Of a stretch of 50,109 nucleotides of DNA, positions 1 to 50,109 are shown one piece after another. Made by a program: the position numbers and the translations under genes. The DNA comes from a virus. Taxonomy: Duplodnaviria > Heunggongvirae > Uroviricota > Caudoviricetes. Within the stretch, counting starts at the first letter, position 1. The number at the start of each line of letters is the position of its first letter. The notes below the pieces were generated by a model. That model saw only the letters and a list, made by a program, of their open reading frames with translations. It had not been told where the DNA came from and ran no database searches. The stretch covers positions 1 through 50,109 of the IMG/VR virus record IMGVR_UViG_2740892016_000006; one strand, written 5' to 3'.

Positions 1-104
1 ATGCCAGCGTTAATTAATCCAGGCAATGATCAGTTTTCGGTTATAAATTTCTTGCCTCACCAGGAATGCGCGGGATATAGTTTAAAGGTTGCCGCAAAAT
101 CGGC

Positions 105-380
105 AGCCGGGCGTAGGAACCCGTGTTATCTGAAGGCGATACTACACGCGCTAGGCGTGTTTTTTTGTGTCGCAGCTTTGACTCACCTAAAATTTATGGT
201 GTGGTGGCTGATTGTATTTTTTTATTTTTTACGCCACATCATCAGAATTATGGTAGTCCAGGCGGGGCAGCTTTCGGGCTGGCCGGTATCCTTCAGAGCC
301 GGTATTCCTACCCCCGTCTGGGCTACCACCCATGAGCGTAGGAACTCCGGTGGTAGCGTTACCCGCTATCTGAAGGAGGT
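105..380 (+). promoter_or_regulatory. P4-type RNA immunity region: two direct repeats (about 111-136 and 334-378, sharing GCGTAGGAAC and TATCTGAAGG) flanking a partially complementary segment (about 283-315)
   Basis: Seen in sequence: direct repeats plus a segment whose ends (CCTTCAGA, TTCCTAC) are reverse complements of the repeat ends; the second repeat overlaps the SD of the next ORF, matching the seqA/seqB/seqC logic of P4 cI RNA immunity. Confidence 0.45.
283..315 (+). ncRNA. Candidate CI-RNA-like element (seqB analogue); boundaries approximate
   Basis: Segment complementary to both flanking direct repeats; inferred by analogy with P4, no structure computed. Confidence 0.3.
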
Positions 381-387
381 TGCCATT

Positions 388-591
388 ATGGCTACAGTCC
401 CTGCTTTATCTCACCCTGAATTTACCTTTGTCTTTCTGGCTGTCCGCCGTACAGACCGTGATGCCCGTCCACGCCCTGTGCGTGTAATCGCAGAATGCGA
501 GCATGCTGCACGCCTTAAACTTGCCACTGAATTTATCCTGAGCTTTGCTGCCCGTATCCCTGTGAAAAGAGCCGGGGAGGTGGTTGCATGA
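388..591 (+). CDS. Small protein in the kil position of the satellite left operon (68 aa)
   Basis: ATG at 388 preceded by GAAGGAGG (372-379) that is overlapped by the second immunity repeat; in frame with the long track ORF 1..591, whose upstream part is judged non-coding. Confidence 0.4.
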   Translation: MATVPALSHPEFTFVFLAVRRTDRDARPRPVRVIAECEHAARLKLATEFILSFAARIPVKRAGEVVA

Positions 592-824
592 AATCCATGA
601 ATTTTAAGCAAGGCTGCATATTGAGTGAACAGGGGGAGAGTCGTCTGTTACGGGCGGCACTGGCCAGTGAGTTTCTTGCAGAGGTCTTGTCCGTGCCCAC
701 AGTGAATGGAGCGAGAACTGTTTCAGCGGAAGGCGCTGCGGCTTTAGTGGCCTGTATTGCCGAACAACTGGATGGCGTTGTTAAGGAAACCAGCACAATT
801 AAGGGAGTGATGCGCGATGAATAA
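588..824 (+). CDS. Hypothetical satellite left-operon protein (78 aa)
   Basis: ORF with GGGGAGG SD upstream; stop overlaps next start. Confidence 0.5.
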   Translation: MKSMNFKQGCILSEQGESRLLRAALASEFLAEVLSVPTVNGARTVSAEGAAALVACIAEQLDGVVKETSTIKGVMRDE

Positions 825-1227
825 TAATCAAAATTTAAAGGCGCATGCTTTACGAACAGCAGTCTTACGCTACTACATTGCTGATGCATTCATTTCCTTA
901 ATGGTGCGTGTTCATAATGAACCTGTTTATATTGAAGATGGCGAACGAATAGAACTCTCCCACGAAAAAGTGGTGAGTAATATTATTTACCATATTGAAA
1001 TGCCGTGGGTGAATGAGTTTGGGGCTGATGCTGGTTGCATACTGGCCGCAGAGAAACTGGAAAAAATGCTTAAACCAGGCTTTATGTCAGAAAATATTCG
1101 CCTGTCAGTTTTTGGTGTCACAGAGATGCGTGAGGTTTACCGGGATATTATTTTCGGAGCACCTGATGGCGAACTACCCGAAGGTTTTGAATTTGTGAAG
1201 CCGGAAGGTCAGGAGGTGCTGCTGTGA
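817..1227 (+). CDS. Hypothetical satellite protein preceding the primase (136 aa; epsilon/orf151 position)
   Basis: ORF translationally coupled to the alpha gene (overlap at 1224-1227). Confidence 0.5.
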   Translation: MNNNQNLKAHALRTAVLRYYIADAFISLMVRVHNEPVYIEDGERIELSHEKVVSNIIYHIEMPWVNEFGADAGCILAAEKLEKMLKPGFMSENIRLSVFGVTEMREVYRDIIFGAPDGELPEGFEFVKPEGQEVLL

Positions 1228-3911
1228 AAACACCGTCTGTATCCACGATTTCCGGAGCTGCAATTGGGCGCTGGCCTTATATCCTGTCAGCATTAGGTAT
1301 TAAAGTACCGTCCGCAGGACATCATGGGGCTTGCCCTGCCTGTGGTGGAAAAGATCGTTTTCGACTGGACGATAAAGCGGGGCGAGGGACGTGGTTTTGT
1401 AATCAGTGCGGTCATGGCGATGGTCTTGATCTGGTTCGTCTGGTGACAGGAAGAAAGATAAAAGAAGTCGCCGGGATGGTATCTGAGGCGCTTGCATTAC
1501 CAGAAATACAGGAGAAGCCCGCATTGCCAGCCAGGAAAAAGGCCGCAGGAAAAGAAGCGGGCGCGGAGCGATATACCAGACTCAGACAGCAGTCCTGCAA
1601 TGGTGAGCCGGTCTATCTGACAAATAAGAGCTTACACGGGTATTCACTTCCCTTGCTGTCACAGCCTTTGAATCTGGCCGGAATAACATTTTCCACCGGT
1701 TCATTACTGCTGCCTTTGACGGATATTTCCGGGAATATTACTGGTGGCCAGCTTATCAATCCTGACGGGGATAAAAGTCTGCTGCCCGGTAGCCAGCTGT
1801 CTGGCGCATTCATTGCCCTGACCGATATACCCGCTGAAACACCTGAACAGGTGATTATCACTGAGGGTTTTGCCACGGCGCTTACCGTCAGTCTGCTGAC
1901 TGAAGGATGGATCGTGGCGGCTGTCGCTGCCACCAATTTACTGAAGGTGACGGAGCAGATCCGAAAACGCTGGCCGGAAACCCGGATCATTCTGGCCGGA
2001 GATAATGATCTGGCTGACGGCAAAGAAAACACCGGGCGTATTCAGGCAGAGAAAGCCGCCAAAGCGGTGGATGGCTGGGTAACGCTCCCTCCGGTACGCC
2101 ATAAGGCTGACTGGGATGATTATCGGCAGGAAGTGGGGAAAGAACGGGCGAGAGATGCCTTTCGTGAAGAAATGACGCTGCATGGCAAAGGGCAGACCCG
2201 TTTACCAGAAGGGTTCCGGCTGACAAAAGAATATTTGTGGTACGACAAGCTGGTTAATAAGTCTGATGGTGATACAGAGATACGTAATATCAAAATTTGC
2301 AGTCCGTTGCGGGTGACGGCAATCACCAGTGATGCTGATGGAAGTAATTACGGGCGTTTGCTGGAATGGGAAGATACCAACGGAAACAGCCGTAAATGGG
2401 CAATGCCGATGGAGATGCTGGGCGGTAGCGGGGAAGAACTGCGCCGCGTTCTGCTGGTTAACGGGCTTTCTTACATCAACATTAACGGCATGGCCAGAGC
2501 ATTCCTGATGGAATATATCTCGCTGTGTAAACCGGACAGAAAAGTAACCTGTGTGAATAAAACTGGCTGGCACGGCGGGGTTTACGTTCTCCAGGATGAA
2601 GTGATAGGGCGCGAAGCCCAGTCAGTCATCTTACAAACATCGAGTGTGCAGGGGCGTGATTTTCGTGTCAGCGGCACATCAGAGGGCTGGCGTGAAAATA
2701 TAGGCCGTTATTGCATAAAGAATGCCCGTCTTGCCTTTGCGGTGAGTCTGGCATTTGCTGCCCCCCTTCTGAAACTGGTTGGTATCGGCGGTGGAGGTTA
2801 TCACCTCAAAGGGGAATCCACAGACGGTAAAACCACGACGATGAAAGTGGCTGCATCAGTATGTGGTGGAACAGATTTCTGGCATACGTGGCGGGCGACG
2901 GGGAATGCCTTAGAAGGAACGGCGAGCCGCCGCAATGATGCCACGCTGATGCTGGATGAAATCCGGGAGGTTGACGGCAGGGAGGCGGGAAATATCGCTT
3001 ATATGCTGGCTAACGGGCAGGGCAAAGCCAGAGCCAGAACAGATGGTTCGGTAAGGGAAACCAACCGCTGGAATCTGTTGTTTCTGTCTACCGGGGAACT
3101 GTCACTGGTAGAGCATGCGGCAAGCGCCGGGGAACGTACGTATGCCGGGGTTGAGGTCAGAATGATCCAGATCCCAAGCGATTCGGGCAAGTATGGCGTG
3201 TTTGAAGAACTTCATGGCTTCAGTAGCGGGAAAACCCTGGCTGAGCATCTTGAGCAGCACGTAGCGCATTATCATGGTGCACCATTCCGCGACTGGCTGT
3301 ATTGCCTGACCGCTGATCTGCCGGAACTGACCAGTCAGGCGAAAGCCTTATTGAAAGAGTATACCCGAAGGCTGACGCCGGAAAATGCCGGGAATCAGGT
3401 TGGCCGGGCTGTTACCCGTTTTGCTCTGGTTGCGATGGCCGGGGAGCTGGCCACAAAAGCGGGCATCACAGGATGGCCGGAGGGAGAGGCCTTTCGTGCC
3501 GCTCAAAGCTGTCTGGCTGCATGGATGGCTGACCGGGGCCATACAGCTAATCAGGAAGATAAAGCGGCACTTGAACAGGTTCGGGACTTCATGACGCGTA
3601 ATCAGTTCAGTCGGTTTGCTGACTGGAATGACGACAGGAACCGGCCTGTTTCAATGATGGGATTCAGAAAAGTCGATAAAGGAGACAACGTGACAGAGCC
3701 GGTTGTGACGTTCTACGTTCTCCCGTCAGGCTGGAAGGAGATCTGTAAAGGATTTGACTCGCGTAAGGTGGCCAGGTTGTGTGTGGACGCGGGCTGGCTG
3801 AAACCCGGTGAAGATGGCCGGACGCAAAACAGCATTCGCCTGCCAGAAATAGGGCTTAAACGTGTGTACCAGTTCAATACACAGGTACTGGGAAGCGCTG
3901 AACCTGAGTGA
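1224..3911 (+). CDS. P4 alpha-type primase-helicase (895 aa)
   Basis: GTG start after AGGAGG SD; N-terminal zinc ribbon CPACGG...CNQCGH, TOPRIM-like ILAGDND, D5-type NTPase with GESTDGKTT Walker A. Confidence 0.9.
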   Translation: MKTPSVSTISGAAIGRWPYILSALGIKVPSAGHHGACPACGGKDRFRLDDKAGRGTWFCNQCGHGDGLDLVRLVTGRKIKEVAGMVSEALALPEIQEKPALPARKKAAGKEAGAERYTRLRQQSCNGEPVYLTNKSLHGYSLPLLSQPLNLAGITFSTGSLLLPLTDISGNITGGQLINPDGDKSLLPGSQLSGAFIALTDIPAETPEQVIITEGFATALTVSLLTEGWIVAAVAATNLLKVTEQIRKRWPETRIILAGDNDLADGKENTGRIQAEKAAKAVDGWVTLPPVRHKADWDDYRQEVGKERARDAFREEMTLHGKGQTRLPEGFRLTKEYLWYDKLVNKSDGDTEIRNIKICSPLRVTAITSDADGSNYGRLLEWEDTNGNSRKWAMPMEMLGGSGEELRRVLLVNGLSYININGMARAFLMEYISLCKPDRKVTCVNKTGWHGGVYVLQDEVIGREAQSVILQTSSVQGRDFRVSGTSEGWRENIGRYCIKNARLAFAVSLAFAAPLLKLVGIGGGGYHLKGESTDGKTTTMKVAASVCGGTDFWHTWRATGNALEGTASRRNDATLMLDEIREVDGREAGNIAYMLANGQGKARARTDGSVRETNRWNLLFLSTGELSLVEHAASAGERTYAGVEVRMIQIPSDSGKYGVFEELHGFSSGKTLAEHLEQHVAHYHGAPFRDWLYCLTADLPELTSQAKALLKEYTRRLTPENAGNQVGRAVTRFALVAMAGELATKAGITGWPEGEAFRAAQSCLAAWMADRGHTANQEDKAALEQVRDFMTRNQFSRFADWNDDRNRPVSMMGFRKVDKGDNVTEPVVTFYVLPSGWKEICKGFDSRKVARLCVDAGWLKPGEDGRTQNSIRLPEIGLKRVYQFNTQVLGSAEPE

Positions 3912-3929
3912 TTATCGCGTGAGTCTTAT

Positions 3930-4130
3930 TTTTATGAGGTAACACTGGTAACAGAGGTAACACCCGTTACTGATGCGGTTCTTCAGTGTTACCAGTCAAA
4001 AATACTGACTGGTAACAGAGGTAACAAAAAATGGTGTGTTACCACGCGTTACCTCTTGATTTTGCTAACTGGTAACAGATTAAATCCTTTTAAATCAATA
4101 GCGTTACACGTGTTACCAGTGTTACACGTT
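3930..4130. repeat. Iteron array (crr/ori-like): about a dozen GGTAACA / TGTTACC heptamers in both orientations
   Basis: Seen in sequence immediately downstream of the alpha gene, e.g. GAGGTAACACTGGTAACAGAGGTAACA, CTGGTAACAGAGGTAACA, GTGTTACCAGTGTTACACG. Confidence 0.6.
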
Positions 4131-4193
4131 CAGAACAAGAGGTAGGGATCCAAATCCCTTCTTCTGGCGGGCAACAGTATAGGGCACAGAACG

Positions 4194-4466
4194 ATGAAGA
4201 TGATGAGAATGTACTGCCCCACATGTCAGGCAGTAGCACGGATAGGTAAAACAAACAGGAAACACCCACAACTGTACGATGTGTACTGCTATTGCTCTAA
4301 TGTGGAGTGCGGTCACTCGTTTGTGATGAATGTTGCTTTCTCCCATTCCGTTAGTCCAAGCGCGCTGAACGGGCAGGGAAGGGTTAAAGAGCTGATTGAT
4401 GCAATTCCACCCGAGGAACGGGAAAAGGCTTTAAAGTTGCTGCTGGCTGCGCAAAAGAATGGGTAA
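4194..4466 (+). CDS. Ogr/Delta-family zinc-finger late-gene transcription activator (true start may be ATG at 4203 or 4209)
   Basis: CPTCQ-x22-CYCSNVEC arrangement matching the P2 Ogr / P4 Delta C-x2-C...C-x4-C zinc finger. Confidence 0.75.
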   Translation: MKMMRMYCPTCQAVARIGKTNRKHPQLYDVYCYCSNVECGHSFVMNVAFSHSVSPSALNGQGRVKELIDAIPPEEREKALKLLLAAQKNG

Positions 4467-5145
4467 AGTATGCGTCGGGAATGGCCGATCTGTTCCCGGA
4501 ACCTGAACACAGGATTTCAGTTTATACGGTCATAAAATTATTATTTTTCAACTGGTTATCTTCTTCATGTTTCACAAACCTTCATAAAATCACACACCTA
4601 AAATTAATTATCCATTTAATATCATAGAGTTGCGTATTCAGGCCATAGATTCGACGGACAGTAAAACTGAAAAAAAATGAATTTCTTTTCATTCTTTTCA
4701 GTTCCTGTATCGCAGTACATCTCGAGGACTGGCACGGACTGGCGGTATCGTTTGTAAAAAATCCAGGCTGAAAATTTTTAGTGATATGAAAACCGCAGGC
4801 GGGTGCGGTGTAGTGCCGTTTTGGTCTGTCGAGCGTATATTTTCCTTTTTCACGATTGCTGCATATCAAAACGAATGTGCAGATATCAGGCCGTGTCAAA
4901 CCGTGAATCGTGGAGCCTAAATGCCCAAACTACGTTTGTAGACCTAGCTAGGGGAAGGTTTCCACATATACTGCTACCTATCTTCCAGTCGCTGGTGAGG
5001 ATCAAGGTAAGCTAACTGGTGAACAAGAAAAGTACTTTCGTATCTTGCGTACTCGTTTTTTTTGATTAGTATGTACAGGTAGTAACTGGATGGTGAGAAT
5101 TCGTCATAACTTATCAAATTGCATGATGTTTATAGAGTATGAGTA

Positions 5146-6027
5146 ATGAGTCATAATAAAAAGGAATATGCTAAATTTTTCCGTCGCCCCATTTTTTCAT
5201 CCTTAGCAAAAGGTAAGGATATTTCGGATTTATTTGGGAGTTTTGATTCTTACTGCTATGAAACACTGTTTTCAAACAATGATAATAATGAACATGAGAT
5301 TTCACTAAGGGATTTATTTACATCATTATATGATTTTTTGCGTCTGAATTATAGAAATGAATATGTTTATAAGACAGCACTTGTCAATAAAATAATATTC
5401 GGTAAGCACAGCCCAAAAACAAGTTCGTCGTCCATAGAGTTACCAATTAAAAACTCTATAGTGGATGTTGCGGTGTTTAATGGTACGTCTACAGCTTACG
5501 AGATTAAGACAGAGTATGATTCACCAAAAAGGTTGATTACTCAAGCCCCTGATTATTTGGATGTTTTTGATAAAGTGTATATAGTTACACATCCAGAGTA
5601 TGCAAGTAAATATTGTGCTTTAAATCTCCCCAGAGTGGGAGTTATGGTTTTGAATAAAAAAGATCAATTGAGTGTCATTAAGGAGGCAGATTCAAATATT
5701 GATTATATTAAAAGTGACAGCTTGTTTTCAGTTCTTAGAAAGGAAGAGTTCTTAGCTATAATAGAAGATTACACTTCAACTAAAATAAATATGCCTAACG
5801 GATTGGTTTATGAATATTGTAAAGAGATATTCATGCAGATGCCATTAAACATAGCAAATAAATACTTTATCTCTGCTATGAAAAAAAGATGTAACGATAA
5901 AGTTTTTTTGGATTATATTTATTCTCTTCCAGCATGTTTACGTGTTTTAGGTTATGCAACACCATTATCAAGAAAGCAAAAAGAATTCATCATGAATTTG
6001 ATGGATGTAAAAATTAAAATTTGTTGA
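5146..6027 (+). CDS. Hypothetical protein A of AT-rich cargo operon (293 aa); possible PD-(D/E)xK-like nuclease motif
   Basis: Long ORF in visibly AT-rich DNA with Asn/Lys/Ile/Tyr-rich composition; motif IVDVAVF...AYEIKTEYD resembles the D...ExK catalytic strands of restriction-endonuclease-fold nucleases (weak). Confidence 0.7.
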   Translation: MSHNKKEYAKFFRRPIFSSLAKGKDISDLFGSFDSYCYETLFSNNDNNEHEISLRDLFTSLYDFLRLNYRNEYVYKTALVNKIIFGKHSPKTSSSSIELPIKNSIVDVAVFNGTSTAYEIKTEYDSPKRLITQAPDYLDVFDKVYIVTHPEYASKYCALNLPRVGVMVLNKKDQLSVIKEADSNIDYIKSDSLFSVLRKEEFLAIIEDYTSTKINMPNGLVYEYCKEIFMQMPLNIANKYFISAMKKRCNDKVFLDYIYSLPACLRVLGYATPLSRKQKEFIMNLMDVKIKIC

Positions 6028-6048
6028 TATCCTCAGGAGTTGTAAGTT

Positions 6049-6999
6049 ATGTATAGCCCATATTTGTATGCGAGAAGTACAGAGTTATTATGCCTTAGGG
6101 ACCTCGTTGCGAAGGGAGTTAGCCTAAATGGTCTGCTACCAATTTTAGAACCAATTAACGTCAATACGAGAAATTTATTAACATGTTTAAATGTTTGGAA
6201 TTCTGACATAATTGTTATCCTTAATCCTTATCAGGAAGATTTTTCTTCACACAATAACGTCTTAACTTTAAATCAAAATTTATCAAGTGTATTAACAAAT
6301 AAAAATAATATCATCTCTGGATATCTTATTCAGCCCAATACAACGATTAATGATATTAATAATTGGTTGAATGCTAACTTAAATAGACGAGTTGCACTTC
6401 TATATGATAATCCATCATTATCCAACTCTGATATTCAGTTGTTGGCGACAAATCAATTGATTAGTTATCATGTTGTTTTAAATAATAAAATGCTTCCTAA
6501 TCAGTGCGCTCTTCTTCCTTTGTCGAAGTTAATTATTATTAGCGATAACTTTAGAAAGTTAGCAAAAAATGCTGATTATAATGGGCCGGAACTTTTCACG
6601 CACGCACATCAATTCGTGGGACAAAATTACTTAGGATTTGGCGATTATACAATTACTGGCCAGGTACTAGATCTTGGAGGTGGTCAACCTTCTGCTGTTG
6701 CCGCACATTTGGTGTTCAAGAATTTACAAGCGAATACAGTTTGGATTCGTCATTTTGTATCAAGCAACACGCAACGAGGAAGTTCAAATGTTACTGCAAA
6801 ATTTTTAGATGTTTCAGATCAAATTACAAATCTTGTTCCCCAACATCCAACCCAGTTTGGCAGCAACATTGGTCTTAACTATTATTATTACAATAGTCAA
6901 CCAACTGTAAGGCATTTCCCTGGGTTGCCAAAAAACAAACAGTATCAAATTACTCACCATATTTGTTTCATGCTGGATTTAATAGCAGGTCGTATTTAA
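6049..6999 (+). CDS. Hypothetical protein B of AT-rich cargo operon (316 aa)
   Basis: ATG at 6049 with AGGAG 10 nt upstream, 21 nt after gene A stop; Asn/Ser/Leu-rich, no motif I recognise; 3' end overlaps the integrase 3' end (6979-6999). Confidence 0.7.
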   Translation: MYSPYLYARSTELLCLRDLVAKGVSLNGLLPILEPINVNTRNLLTCLNVWNSDIIVILNPYQEDFSSHNNVLTLNQNLSSVLTNKNNIISGYLIQPNTTINDINNWLNANLNRRVALLYDNPSLSNSDIQLLATNQLISYHVVLNNKMLPNQCALLPLSKLIIISDNFRKLAKNADYNGPELFTHAHQFVGQNYLGFGDYTITGQVLDLGGGQPSAVAAHLVFKNLQANTVWIRHFVSSNTQRGSSNVTAKFLDVSDQITNLVPQHPTQFGSNIGLNYYYYNSQPTVRHFPGLPKNKQYQITHHICFMLDLIAGRI

Positions 7000-8154
7000 T
7001 AAGCTAGCGTACCATTCCATCATTACTTGTCGATCTTTAATATATTGCGCATGATTGTAAGTACCTCGAATAGAGTTCTTATCAACATGCGCAAGCTGCA
7101 TTTCAATCCAGGCACTTTCAAACCCATGCTCATGCAAGATGGTGCTCATGGTATGCCTGAAACCGTGACCCGTTAACCGACCGTGATAACCCAGTAGTTT
7201 TATCACTTTGTTGATGCTGGCTTCGCTCATTGGTTTACTGACGTCATTCCGGCCAGGGAAAACGAGGCTGTAATTCCCTGTTATTTCTTGCAGCTTTTTC
7301 AGGATATTGATCGCCTGAGTTGATAACGGAACCAGATGGGGGCGGCGTTTCTTCATCCGTTCTTTGGGGATCTCCCATAAGGCATTATCTAAATCAAACT
7401 CAGCCCATTCCGCTGCACGTAGTTCAATTGTTCGCACGCCTGTTAGCATCAACAGCTGCGTGGCGTATTTGGTAACTAAACTGCCCTGATAGTTATCCAG
7501 AGCATTAACGAACTCGGGCAACTCGCTTTCAGTCAGGAACGGGAAGTGTTGGGTTTTAGGTTTGTTGAGTGCGATAGCTAAATCGGGTGCAAAATTATAC
7601 TTTGCTCTACCAGTGGCAACAGCATAACGAAGCACTTCACCACAGCGGCGGCGGATCTTACTGGTTTGCTCTAGCGCACCTCTTTTCTCTATTTTTTGCA
7701 GGACGGTTAGCAGTTCTAATGGTTCAATCTGCTCAATTGGGCGCTGGCCGATAAAAGGAAAAATATCCTTTTCCATACAATTGAGAACCTCTTTTGCATA
7801 ACCCTCTGACCAGGTGGCTTTTTTCGATGAGTGCCATTCTCTGGCCACAGACTCAAAGCTGTTCTCATGCGCGAACTGCAAAGCAATCTTATCTGCTTTT
7901 CTGGCTTCACTTGGGTTTATCCCGTTGGCTAACATCGAACGCGCTTCATCACGTTTGGTACGTGCCTGTGCCAACGACACATCGCCATATACGCCAAAGG
8001 AAATCATCTTAGGCTTACCTGCAAAGCGATAGCGAAAACGCCAGCCTTTACTGCCCGCTGTGTCGATCAGGAGTGATAGCCCCATACCATCGTTAAGCGT
8101 ATAGGGTTTGTCCTTCGGTTTTGCTCTTTTTATTTGGATGTCAGATAGCAGCAT
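6979..8154 (-). CDS. P4-family tyrosine integrase (about 391 aa; start taken at the second Met of the track ORF)
   Basis: N-terminal KPKDKPY...WRFRYRFAGK arm-binding motif, C-terminal HGFRH...LAHVD...RGTYNHAQY catalytic region; homologous to the IntS-like integrase at 48952-50109. Confidence 0.9.
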   Translation of the reverse strand: MLLSDIQIKRAKPKDKPYTLNDGMGLSLLIDTAGSKGWRFRYRFAGKPKMISFGVYGDVSLAQARTKRDEARSMLANGINPSEARKADKIALQFAHENSFESVAREWHSSKKATWSEGYAKEVLNCMEKDIFPFIGQRPIEQIEPLELLTVLQKIEKRGALEQTSKIRRRCGEVLRYAVATGRAKYNFAPDLAIALNKPKTQHFPFLTESELPEFVNALDNYQGSLVTKYATQLLMLTGVRTIELRAAEWAEFDLDNALWEIPKERMKKRRPHLVPLSTQAINILKKLQEITGNYSLVFPGRNDVSKPMSEASINKVIKLLGYHGRLTGHGFRHTMSTILHEHGFESAWIEMQLAHVDKNSIRGTYNHAQYIKDRQVMMEWYASLLNTTCY

Positions 8155-8314
8155 GTGTATAGAAAAAAGATCGAACTCAGTTATACACAATGTTATACGC
8201 AAAGATGTATAGATTCCATTAGAAATAATGGTACTTTGCTGGACGAGTATAAGGAGATGATATCAGTTAAAACAGTGAGTTATGGAATTAATTGAACTTA
8301 GTGAGAAGTGTTCA

Positions 8315-8329
8315 TGGTGTCCCCTGCAG
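8315..8329 (-). other. Attachment-site core: TGGTGTCCCCTGCAG, reverse complement of the 3' acceptor end of tRNA-Arg (argW) as I recall it
   Basis: Sits between the satellite integrase start (8154) and torI (8403); argW sequence is from memory and must be verified. Confidence 0.5.
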
Positions 8330-8402
8330 ACATCTACTTGAAGCGGCAGGGGATTGATTGGAATGGTGTTTTTTAGATGTGAAAAAAATTTTACCCGCTA
8401 TT

Positions 8403-8603
8403 TTACCCATTGGCGCGGCTTAAGAGCTTATTTTTGAATTCACAATGGTCACGATATAACCATCTTGCTCGTCCGTGGATAACTTTGGCTTTAGGCAGGT
8501 CGCCGGACTTAATCCGGTCATAGATGAAGGTCTTACCGAAGCCAGTATCGGCCATGATGAATTTCAAATCAACCAGGGAATCAGGCTGTAGTTCGTGTTG
8601 CAT
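8403..8603 (-). CDS. torI: TorI-type excisionase / recombination directionality factor (66 aa, AlpA-like)
   Basis: Sequence MQHELQPDSLVDLKFIMADTGFGKTFIYDRIKSGDLPKAKVIHGRARWLYRDHCEFKNKLL matches the recalled E. coli KplE1 TorI. Confidence 0.8.
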   Translation of the reverse strand: MQHELQPDSLVDLKFIMADTGFGKTFIYDRIKSGDLPKAKVIHGRARWLYRDHCEFKNKLLSRANG

Positions 8604-14942: not shown

Positions 14943-15266
14943 CTATTCGTCCTTATCTACATTCCTGAACCAAACGCAGATCGGACCGTCTTCTGTATCG
15001 TGAATCGAACCGACAAACCATCCTTCTCCATCTGGCATGCTTGGCTCCCATCCACTGATGTTTTGATTCCCATCTTCAAAATACGCGTCAATTACCGTTT
15101 GATTGTTGTCGTTTTCCATTTCAACAATTGATGATTCAATGCCATGCTGCTTGCAGAAAGATCTGAACTCATCAGCTGAAATTACCTCTCTATCCCCAAA
15201 CAGGTTGGCGTATTCTGGGTGCGTCCAGTAGCCATCCTCGCTTCGCTCTACTACTAATGCTTCCAT
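14943..15266 (-). CDS. Hypothetical early-left acidic protein (107 aa)
   Basis: ORF in leftward operon. Confidence 0.5.
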   Translation of the reverse strand: MEALVVERSEDGYWTHPEYANLFGDREVISADEFRSFCKQHGIESSIVEMENDNNQTVIDAYFEDGNQNISGWEPSMPDGEGWFVGSIHDTEDGPICVWFRNVDKDE

Positions 15267-48951: not shown

Positions 48952-50109
48952 TCACTCCACCTTTTCATCAAGCCAATCCGCCCACCACTGCATCATTTCT
49001 CTGCGCTTATCGAGATACTGAGCATGGTTGTAAATCCCGCGCACAGATCCGACGTTGGCATGTGCCAGTTGCACTTCAATAGCATCAGCAGGCCATTCGT
49101 GCTCGTTCATAATCGTGCTGAATTCATGCCTGAATCCGTGACCGCTTTCCAGACCCTCATAGCCGATTTGTTTGATCACAAGCAGTACCGCGTTCTCGCA
49201 GATTGGCTTCTTCTTATCGTTGCGCCCGGCAAAAACAAACTCTGATACTGGTTTGGTGATTGAGCTTAGCGTAGTGAGAAGTTCAACCACCTGGTCTGAC
49301 ATAGGAACCACATGAATTTTGCGTCCCTTCATTACACTGGCGTCGATGGTGATAATCCTGTTTTCAAAATCGACGTTCTTCCATAGCATGGAGCGAAGCT
49401 CTTTCGTTCTTAGGGCTGTGTAGCGCAAAACTTTAGTCGCAATGAGCGATACGATACTTCCTGAAAATGTTGCCAGTGCTTTATTGAATGCCGGGATCTG
49501 GTCTGCAGGAAGAAACGGGAAGTTTTTCTTGCGGTATCCCTTCATGGCGTCAGCAAGGTCAGGTGCCGGGTTATATTTAGCCCTACCAGTGACAATAGCG
49601 TAACGGAAAACCTCGCCGCATCTTCTGCGGGCTTTATTTGCTCGCTCCATTGCACCGCGATCTTCAAATCTGCGGATTACTTCCAGCAGTTGCATCGGCT
49701 CAATCTCCTGAATTTCAAGGCCGCCGATGATAGGTAAAATGTCGTCATCAAACATTTTTGCAAGTTCAGTCGCATACCCTACTGACCATACTTGCTTCTT
49801 GTGCTCGTACCATTCCTTGTAAATCGCACTAAAGGAATTGTTGTTAGACGAAGCCTTTTTCGCCTTTACCGGATCGATGCCAACCGAGATGTCTTTCCTC
49901 GCAGTCCATGCCTTATCCCTTGCCTCCTGCAAAGTCATTAGCGGATATTTTCCTACGGTCAGGATTTTCTCCTTACCGTCAATCTTGTAGCGAAGCTGCC
50001 ATACCTTTTTCCCGGATACAGGGACATAAAGGTACAGGCCATTACCATCGAGAAGGCGGTATGGTTTTTCTTTCGGCTTTGCTGCTTCAATCTGCTTAAC
50101 AGTGAGCAT
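48952..50109 (-). CDS. intS: P4-family tyrosine integrase, IntS (KplE1/CPS-53) type; start codon at 50107-50109
   Basis: MLTVKQIEAAKPKEKPYRLLDGNGLYLYVPVSGKKVWQLRYKIDGK... matches recalled E. coli IntS; catalytic HGFRH...LAH...RGIYNHAQY. Confidence 0.9.
   Translation of the reverse strand: MLTVKQIEAAKPKEKPYRLLDGNGLYLYVPVSGKKVWQLRYKIDGKEKILTVGKYPLMTLQEARDKAWTARKDISVGIDPVKAKKASSNNNSFSAIYKEWYEHKKQVWSVGYATELAKMFDDDILPIIGGLEIQEIEPMQLLEVIRRFEDRGAMERANKARRRCGEVFRYAIVTGRAKYNPAPDLADAMKGYRKKNFPFLPADQIPAFNKALATFSGSIVSLIATKVLRYTALRTKELRSMLWKNVDFENRIITIDASVMKGRKIHVVPMSDQVVELLTTLSSITKPVSEFVFAGRNDKKKPICENAVLLVIKQIGYEGLESGHGFRHEFSTIMNEHEWPADAIEVQLAHANVGSVRGIYNHAQYLDKRREMMQWWADWLDEKVE

Follow-up and report, generated by a model that had tools for sequence, protein, structure and literature searches.

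A P4-related satellite at argW of Escherichia coli ST131 with a P2-family coat-protein homologue and a predicted ESSI-2-like helper

The DNA analyzed here, 50,109 nucleotides of IMG/VR virus record IMGVR_UViG_2740892016_000006 (positions 1 to 50,109; referred to throughout as the window), begins inside a phage satellite of 11,009 bp and continues into a P22-like prophage. On its gene content and boundaries the satellite is recognizable as an intact element of a P4-related lineage, one of a conserved group in the Enterobacteriaceae, and we consider it likely, from sequence comparison, that this is a satellite lineage of ESSI-2-like peduoviruses that carries its own coat-protein homologue in place of the Sid and Psu proteins of P4. 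The ESSI-2-like phages (genera Seongnamvirus and Quadragintavirus, including Cronobacter phage ESSI-2 and the Escherichia ESSI2_ev phages) are a rarely studied group of the P2 family; they are the predicted helpers because the satellite has an ESSI-2-type cos site and because its Ogr activator and its capsid protein are both closest to theirs. The initial annotation of the window had supposed dependence on a P2-like helper; a P2-family myovirus is indeed predicted, but one of the ESSI-2 group rather than P2.

Helper-directed features of the satellite family

The features that bear most directly on the helper are listed below; positions upstream of the window are those of locus L001, in which 15088-15165 correspond to window positions 88-165.

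L001 12781-13008, upstream of the window: AlpA-family regulator (PF05930, 5.2e-20)
Upstream of the window, between alpA and the capsid gene: conserved 286-aa all-alpha protein, hypothetical in annotations
Upstream of the window: 334-aa P2-family major capsid protein homologue (PF05125, 9.5e-67, full length; phrog_70, 1.8e-86)
4194-4466, plus strand: single-domain Ogr/Delta zinc-finger late-gene activator, 90 aa (PF04606, 5e-14)
4662-4830, no strand: intergenic cos region of ESSI-2 type (72-77% identity to ESSI-2, ev015, ev040 and ev129)

The cos region contains a 28-nt core (4795-4822, GCAGGCGGGTGCGGTGTAGTGCCGTTTT) that exactly matches the joined ends of the ESSI-2 genome record and includes a putative 15-nt cohesive end (GCGGGTGCGGTGTAG, 4799-4813), and the approximately 150 nt of flanking homology is confined, among 50,697 phage records, to ESSI-2-like phages. 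The ESSI-2 record has GCGGGTGCGGTGTAG at both termini (a 15-nt terminal duplication), which marks the cohesive end; the ESSI2_ev015 record ends in ...GGCGGGTGC and restarts with GTAGCGCC after a sequencing adaptor, and in the ESSI2_ev040 assembly the adaptor is inserted exactly between GGGTGC and GGTGTAG. Read from these records, the core site is the physical end of ESSI-2-like virion DNA. The core and the flanking motifs ACTGAAAAA and TTTTCAGTT are conserved at the same position in all 10 aligned satellites, which come from at least six genera. Inspection for a cos site upstream of the window had been proposed in the initial annotation; such a site does exist, but it lies inside the window, at approximately 4662-4830, and is of ESSI-2 type. 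The P2-type cos (GGCGAGGCGGGGAAAGCAC, the 19-nt P2/P4 cohesive end) is absent from the satellite, where only short matches at chance level occur.

The core was also considered as a phage attachment site (attP), which is ruled out: the ESSI-2-like prophage of E. coli EH09-18-41, although integrated, has an unbroken 19-nt core in its interior, 28 kb away from its integrase gene, and the core is therefore cos and not attP. This prophage (L027) is complete and of Quadragintavirus type, occupies NZ_CP063503.1 1710051-1739596 between mntS and mntR, and carries a serine acetyltransferase moron beside cos. The adaptor in the two public records (ESSI2_ev015, L005, at the ends of NC_049395; ESSI2_ev040, L010, at approximately 1645-1687 of NC_049393) is a Nextera adaptor, an assembly artefact that marks DNA ends.

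With its ESSI2_ev015 counterpart, an Ogr-like protein, the satellite Ogr shares 52% identity; with either half of P4 delta the figure is about 20%. The satellite ogr gene is on the primase strand and, as initially described, is a single-domain gene that follows the alpha-type primase gene and the crr-like iterons in the same orientation. Ogr-type TGT-N12-ACA sites number two in the satellite, both intergenic (upstream of alpA and of ogr), with 2.7 expected by chance, and were discarded as evidence because of this chance frequency and because the site upstream of ogr overlaps the iterons.

Upstream of the window, alpA, the gene for the 286-aa protein and the major capsid gene form an operon that is followed by a strong hairpin terminator. 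The capsid protein is 47-48% identical to the coat proteins of ESSI-2, ESSI2_ev015, ev040, ev129 and ev239 and 22% identical to P2 gpN, and it matches the solved P2-family coat structures 7oz4 and 7jw1; its score of 204.6 bits falls just below the NCBI equivalog cut-off for phage coat proteins (219.65). With a dN/dS of 0.07-0.15 the gene is under purifying selection comparable to that on the primase gene (about 0.06). The coat homologue is the only head component found: the 11-kb element yielded no portal, protease or terminase. Homologues of sid, psu and epsilon were likewise not found anywhere in the delimited element (Pfam, PHROG, BLASTP and hhalign), so that the absence of sid and psu already remarked on for the window extends to the upstream sequence, where the capsid homologue and the 286-aa protein stand instead.

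These features recur across the family. Eleven loci from metagenome and genome collections, representing at least six genera, have a common gene order, which is complete in the five that are free of assembly gaps and contig breaks: alpA, 286-aa gene, coat gene, Ash gene, small open reading frames (ORFs), primase gene, ogr, cos and cargo. The capsid gene always lies directly after the 286-aa gene in these loci. Where the family integrase gene is of the argW type (about 90% identical) it stands at the right end; otherwise it is about 60% identical, goes with a different tRNA gene and stands at the left end, in several relatives beside alpA. The 286-aa protein is represented by 105 clusters, all annotated as hypothetical, from E. 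coli, Salmonella, Klebsiella, Enterobacter, Citrobacter, Cronobacter, Franconibacter, Kosakonia and others. A defective P2-like prophage remnant is ruled out as an account of the element by the recurrent compact architecture in the 11 loci and by dN/dS values of 0.06-0.15. A search of IMG/VR for virion-derived 11-kb contigs ending at cos returned none; the matches are mostly prophage predictions in isolate genomes, with a few metagenome contigs of 18-44 kb. Two metagenome contigs of about 11 kb are chromosomal fragments that end in tRNA genes, neither circular nor cos-ended.

The coat homologue, the 286-aa protein and a proposed role in capsid size

The 286-aa protein has no match in Pfam, PHROG, NCBIfam or PADLOC, no tblastn match in phages and no sequence match in the PDB. 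An AlphaFold model, built on the 92%-identical Salmonella homologue P0003 (the E. coli protein is encoded outside the window), is entirely alpha-helical (pLDDT 86.5, pTM 0.81). Comparison of the family by hhalign gave a probability of 0.6% with Sid and 0.3% with Psu, and was negative with gpO. Its gene is directly upstream of the coat gene, the position that the gpO scaffold gene holds in the helper phages, and because of this fixed position and the all-alpha fold of the model a scaffold or size-determining role for the protein is plausible.

From these components the following cycle can be proposed. The satellite would be kept silent by its antisense RNA; an infecting or induced ESSI-2-like phage would trigger excision (by Int and AlpA) and cause the primase-helicase to replicate the element from the iterons, and the Ogr proteins of satellite and helper would cross-activate late genes. 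The helper terminase would then cut and package unit-length satellite DNA at cos, and the satellite coat homologue, probably together with the 286-aa protein, would form small capsids on the helper portal and scaffold, which is the job of Sid in P4. Small capsids are proposed because the satellite has 0.36-0.38 of the length of its helpers (11,009 bp versus 28.8-30.9 kb); the P4/P2 length ratio is 0.35. We advance only tentatively the specific form of this proposal, namely that the lineage swapped Sid and Psu for a diverged copy of the helper coat protein and an all-alpha partner, and so may assemble capsids of one-third size with the portal, scaffold, terminase and tails that ESSI-2-like phages supply. 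If true, capsid-size redirection would have been solved a second time, and independently, in the P2/P4 world, by an element present in more than 400 pandemic ST131 genomes; a coat homologue that sets capsid size would offer a tractable E. coli counterpart of SaPIbov5 Ccm and a natural experiment on the way in which triangulation number is specified by HK97-fold proteins.

Several results weigh against a lineage that depends on ESSI-2-like phages and builds with its own coat protein. ESSI-2-like prophages are rare in E. coli (head genes are detected by megablast in 48 genomes, the full region in 29 of 5,426 complete genomes), and the 48 positive genomes include none of the 60 satellite carriers listed and none of the 13 genomes in which the satellite stands in tandem with the P22-like prophage. 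Of the 29 lysogens, at least 17 have no satellite of this family; the remaining 12 are ambiguous because co-occurrence was assessed with chimeric queries and the second match could be to a P2-type terminase. Relatives do not preserve the TGT-N12-ACA site that precedes alpA, and for the 286-aa protein neither a relative nor a fold match could be detected. Finally, the capsid gene of the phage-inducible chromosomal island (PICI) EcCICFT073 is dispensable for transfer, according to PMC10111431 (citing Fillol-Salom 2018), and a structural or size-determining role for the satellite coat gene therefore cannot be assumed. By these counts the satellite is an orphan in ST131, and, with no ESSI-2-like prophage among the compared carriers, the predicted helper would need to arrive by infection.

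The EcCICFT073 result also favors a different function, in which the capsid homologue and the 286-aa protein act as interference factors that poison or misdirect helper head assembly, as a defence, and are not building blocks of particles. SaPIbov5 Ccm blocks phage reproduction (PMC6092414), and the sub-threshold equivalog score of the coat protein fits the same idea. The protein is nevertheless full length and conserved at a level like that of the primase, and an element of one-third helper size that is packaged at cos normally needs either a matching capsid or packaging of multimers; moreover, known satellites usually interfere and redirect size in one and the same act. On balance we regard a purely interfering role as rather unlikely.

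Occurrence at argW and the neighboring prophage

The limits of the satellite and its neighbor in the window are as follows:

6979-8154, minus strand: P4-type tyrosine integrase, argW-specific (Arm-DNA-bind_3, Phage_int_M, Phage_integrase)
8314-8329, no strand: att core, a copy of the argW 3' end, at the junction of satellite and Sf6-like prophage (direct repeats; matches in prophage-free genomes end at 8329)
8330-50109, no strand: Sf6/IME10-like (P22-like) prophage, in tandem at argW and not part of the satellite (annotation of the near-identical region in strain 4993)

The satellite spans L001 12321-23329. Its left end lies beside dsdC, 2,680 bp upstream of the window, so that window positions 1-8329 are its right-hand three quarters and the left quarter falls outside; the limits drawn initially, at positions 1 and 8314, are corrected accordingly, the right one to the att core at 8314-8329. 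A 15-nt sequence identical to the argW 3' end (TGGTGTCCCCTGCAG) is present at window 8315-8329, at the left end of the satellite (L001 12321-12335) and in argW itself. In most carriers the match ends at window position 8329 and is followed by tRNA-Arg (argW) and then yfdC, and in genomes free of the P22-like podovirus the integrase gene adjoins tRNA-Arg. The repeats and junctions thus place the integrated satellite at the 3' end of tRNA-Arg argW. Both att repeats and cos are intact, and all of its genes are full length when compared with distant family members. About 10 CCCAG pentanucleotide repeats lie between the left att repeat and alpA (L001 12459-12508, 2.5 kb upstream of the window).

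Window positions 1-8400 are 100% identical to chromosomes of E. coli O25b:H4-ST131 strains, and among 5,426 complete E. coli genomes about 421 have at least 80% of this stretch; judged by the strain names listed, the copies are at least 99% identical and occupy the same site. The satellite is a near-universal, defence-carrying island of E. coli ST131. IS1, ISEc23, IS4321 or ISEcp1 is found inside or beside it in some ST131 strains (for example, NZ_CM190141.1, NZ_AP022549.1, NZ_CP184002.1 and NZ_CP107120.1).

Such uniformity at one site, the insertion sequences in some copies and the failure to find an ESSI-2-like prophage in the compared carriers would all be expected if the ST131 element were a domesticated island, inherited vertically, kept for its sce7726/sce7725 cargo and no longer mobilized for want of a circulating helper. 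Set against this are the full-length genes, the intact att repeats and cos, the family-wide purifying selection on the morphogenesis genes, and the consideration that helpers may come by infection, for which residence is not needed. We judge domestication quite unlikely; it concerns the present-day state of one clone and is compatible with descent from a satellite lineage of ESSI-2-like phages.

The only phage in the window is, as initially annotated, P22-like. Over 41-51% of the queried stretch 8330-33000 it is 97% identical to IME10 and Sf6, and the genes to the right of 8329 run from a torI-type excisionase through lambdoid early genes and P22-type head, ejection-protein and tailspike genes to intS. 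No tRNA gene was found inside the window; argW lies just past its right end, and in the near-identical strain 4993 it is 160 bp beyond the equivalent of that end. The tandem order at one att site is thus argW, podovirus, att, satellite, att, dsdC. The junction of the two elements occurs in only 13 of about 421 satellite-bearing E. coli genomes. The initial annotation had found it puzzling that a P4-like satellite should sit next to a P22-like prophage and not next to a P2-like helper. That no P2-like helper adjoins the satellite holds, and the puzzle itself dissolves: on the genomes compared, the podovirus is a second occupant of a shared att site, its adjacency has no functional meaning, and most carriers do not have it. 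The adjacency says nothing about helper use because the junction is limited to 13 genomes and the argW att site is common to both elements.

That the adjacent prophage is nonetheless the helper, inducing and packaging the island, has a precedent in the PICI EcCIMP1 (with an integrase, AlpA, an Ash-family protein and a primase), which is mobilized by the P22-like phage Kapi1 with excisionase cross-talk (PMC11773190), and because of this Kapi1-mobilized island with Ash and primase we keep the idea, at a low probability. Both elements do use argW, the satellite integrase and the podovirus IntS are 45% identical, and a distant relationship links AlpA to TorI (27% over 51 aa). Packaging in P22-like phages is of the headful kind and starts at a pac site, not at cos. 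Every helper-directed feature of the satellite (ESSI-2 cos, Ogr, P2-family capsid protein) is of P2-family type, no homologue of P22-type packaging or head proteins was found in it by domain and PHROG scans, and the podovirus is missing beside the satellite in nearly all carriers, as counted above; we therefore hold a helper role for the neighbor to be very improbable.

Within the prophage, the torI-type xis (8403-8603) and intS (48952-50109) lie at opposite ends, and attP would consequently lie between xis and intS in the phage genome; the K-12 prophage KplE1, also at argW, has the same xis/int layout. The window starts exactly at the start codon of the Ash/Icd-like ORF and ends at the intS start codon. 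Several IMG/VR 'viral' contigs of about 50 kb (loci L028-L038) similarly begin within the satellite and run through the Sf6-like prophage, indicating that prophage callers fuse the two tandem elements, as in the window.

Relation to P4 and other satellites

The remainder of the satellite within the window comprises an immunity and replication region and, between cos and the integrase gene, a cargo region:

1-591, plus strand: Ash/Icd-like ORF, first gene of the replication operon and site of the immunity region (PF10554 Phage_ASH, 3e-32; phrog_6928 'transcriptional repressor', 8e-57; RefSeq 'Icd-like')
88-165, plus strand: isrK-like RNA element, immunity leader, inside the Ash/Icd-like ORF (Rfam RF01394, 68.9 bits, gathering score 50, full length; L001 15088-15165)
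246-333, plus strand: C4/cI-type antisense immunity RNA, inside the Ash/Icd-like ORF (Rfam RF01695, 81.1 bits, gathering score 45, model positions 1-87 of 87; L001 15246-15333)
588-824, plus strand: 78-aa protein of unassigned function at the P4 epsilon position (conserved in the family; phrog_38507)
817-1227, plus strand: 136-aa protein at the P4 ORF106 position (kept in most family members)
1224-3911, plus strand: 895-aa primase-helicase, functional analogue of P4 alpha (Zn_Ribbon_Prim, Toprim_3, DUF927 at 3.9e-91)
3935-4130, no strand: iteron cluster, putative origin (ori/crr analogue; exact GGTAACA/TGTTACC copies and variants in both orientations)
5146-6027, plus strand: sce7726-family protein, AT-rich gene, homologue of P4 cII of the gop-beta-cII defence locus (NF033832, 9.6e-52; PADLOC 'cll', 1.2e-18)
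6049-6999, plus strand: sce7725-family protein, partner of sce7726, candidate defence cassette (NF033831, 1.1e-71)

The C4 and isrK scores are well above the gathering scores, so that RNA immunity of the P1/P4 type is really present. The alpha-type primase and the crr-like iterons of the initial annotation are likewise there, with the qualification that the primase is alpha-like in its N-terminal part only: with P4 alpha it shares 38% identity over residues 1-317, and its C-terminal half (the helicase/origin-binding part) is unrelated and of DUF927 type. Within this half (window 2778-3173, residues 519-650) there is a weak match, at 3e-16 and far below the cut-off, to NF047345, the SCCmec 'cassette chromosome replicative helicase'. 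Just 3' of the primase gene, the stretch 3938-4117 contains nine exact GGTAACA iterons (in the whole 50-kb window there are 13, with 4.2 expected by chance), and they are alike in style to the P4 type-1 iterons, which read TGTTCACC. The two small proteins match their positional counterparts less well. P4 epsilon gave no BLASTP alignment with the 78-aa protein, which may nevertheless be a functional analogue, and P4 ORF106 showed no BLASTP similarity to the 136-aa protein; DUF5375 is a precomputed match in a 98.5%-identical homologue of the latter that our Pfam scan of the window did not reproduce.

The following are shared with P4: a length of about 11 kb, a P4-type integrase beside a tRNA gene, an AlpA/Vis-type regulator, C4/cI-type RNA immunity in the Ash region, an iteron origin just 3' of the primase gene, a primase with an alpha-like N-terminal half, an Ogr/Delta-family activator, cos packaging by a P2-family helper (predicted here from sequence) and a defence hotspot between cos and int with a cII (sce7726) homologue. 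Unlike P4, the element has no sid, psu or epsilon, a single-domain helper-type Ogr replaces delta, the primase has a DUF927 helicase half, the replication operon points towards int, and an ESSI-2-type cos, a P2-family capsid gene and the novel 286-aa protein are present. The departure from canonical P4 gene order noted initially is therefore real, and larger than is visible in the window; because sid, psu, epsilon and the P2-type cos all fail, we do not file the element as a canonical P4-like satellite. We give very little probability to a P4-like satellite of the ordinary kind, with its P2-like helper, its sid/psu and a P2-type cos located elsewhere: the P4 chassis, and a second match to P2-type terminase, which chimeric queries (a satellite segment joined to a terminase segment, reading the column of places per record) gave for about 40% of the ST131 genomes listed but for only 2 of the 13 tandem genomes, are outweighed by the delimitation of the whole element without sid, psu or an epsilon homologue, by the absence of the 19-nt P2/P4 cohesive end, by the lack of a P2-like terminase in 11 of the 13 tandem genomes, and by an Ogr and a capsid protein far closer to ESSI-2-like phages than to P2/P4. 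The combination that the initial annotation had named as pointing to an ordinary satellite, a P2-like helper elsewhere in the genome with sid, psu and cos immediately upstream, is accordingly not what we found, the tandem genomes having neither sid/psu in the element nor, in any of the 13, an ESSI-2-like prophage.

Among satellites of other types, SaPIbov5 (with Ccm) and PmCI172 also encode a homologue of the helper major capsid protein that is associated with small capsids, and SaPIbov5 is also cos-packaged, according to PMC6092414, in which the small heads of PmCI172 are formed with a Mu-like helper. Unlike the present satellite, however, SaPIbov5 uses Staphylococcus siphoviruses and PmCI172 a Mu-like Pasteurella phage; both are without Ogr, RNA immunity and the P4-type chassis, and small capsids, experimental there, are a prediction here.

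Gram-negative PICIs such as EcCICFT073 and EcCIMP1 share with the satellite an integrase, alpA, a primase with a downstream origin, mostly unidirectional genes and a helper-type cos, together with small size and the absence of lysis and tail genes. EcCIMP1 also carries an Ash-family gene (PMC11773190), and a capsid gene is reported for 21 of 29 reference Gram-negative PICIs (PMC10111431). The helpers of these islands, in contrast, are lambdoid, P22-like or Mu-like; the capsid genes of the islands resemble lambda gpE, Ogr/Delta is absent from them, and EcCICFT073 DNA is packaged in full-size heads. The helper-directed parts of the satellite are all of P2-family type. Capsid-forming PICIs (cfPICIs), like the satellite, encode their own coat protein. 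In these the head and packaging module is complete, from coat and portal through protease and connectors to terminase; the satellite has only a coat homologue and one protein of unassigned function.

In the literature searched (full text, with subscription-only papers outside its reach), we found no P4-type satellite described as having a P2-family coat gene or as exploiting ESSI-2-like phages. The genes sid, psu and delta are the markers by which relatives of P4, the textbook satellite, are defined and looked for; a lineage that retains the P4 chassis together with a coat homologue and an ESSI-2-type cos may consequently be missed or mis-filed by marker-based detection.

The two cargo genes have a GC content of 0.31-0.34. 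The sce7726 protein is 39% identical to P4 cII over 61 aa, and P4 cII is itself a member of the sce7726 family; between sce7725 and P4 beta BLASTP found no similarity. Family members differ in what they carry between cos and int (sce7726/sce7725 here, a Shedu SduA_C protein in locus L013), in agreement with the defence hotspot described for P4-like satellites (PMC13586616). The sce7725 (plus strand) and integrase (minus strand) genes converge, and their 3' ends overlap by 21 nt (6979-6999), suggesting that the cargo cassette was inserted flush against int.

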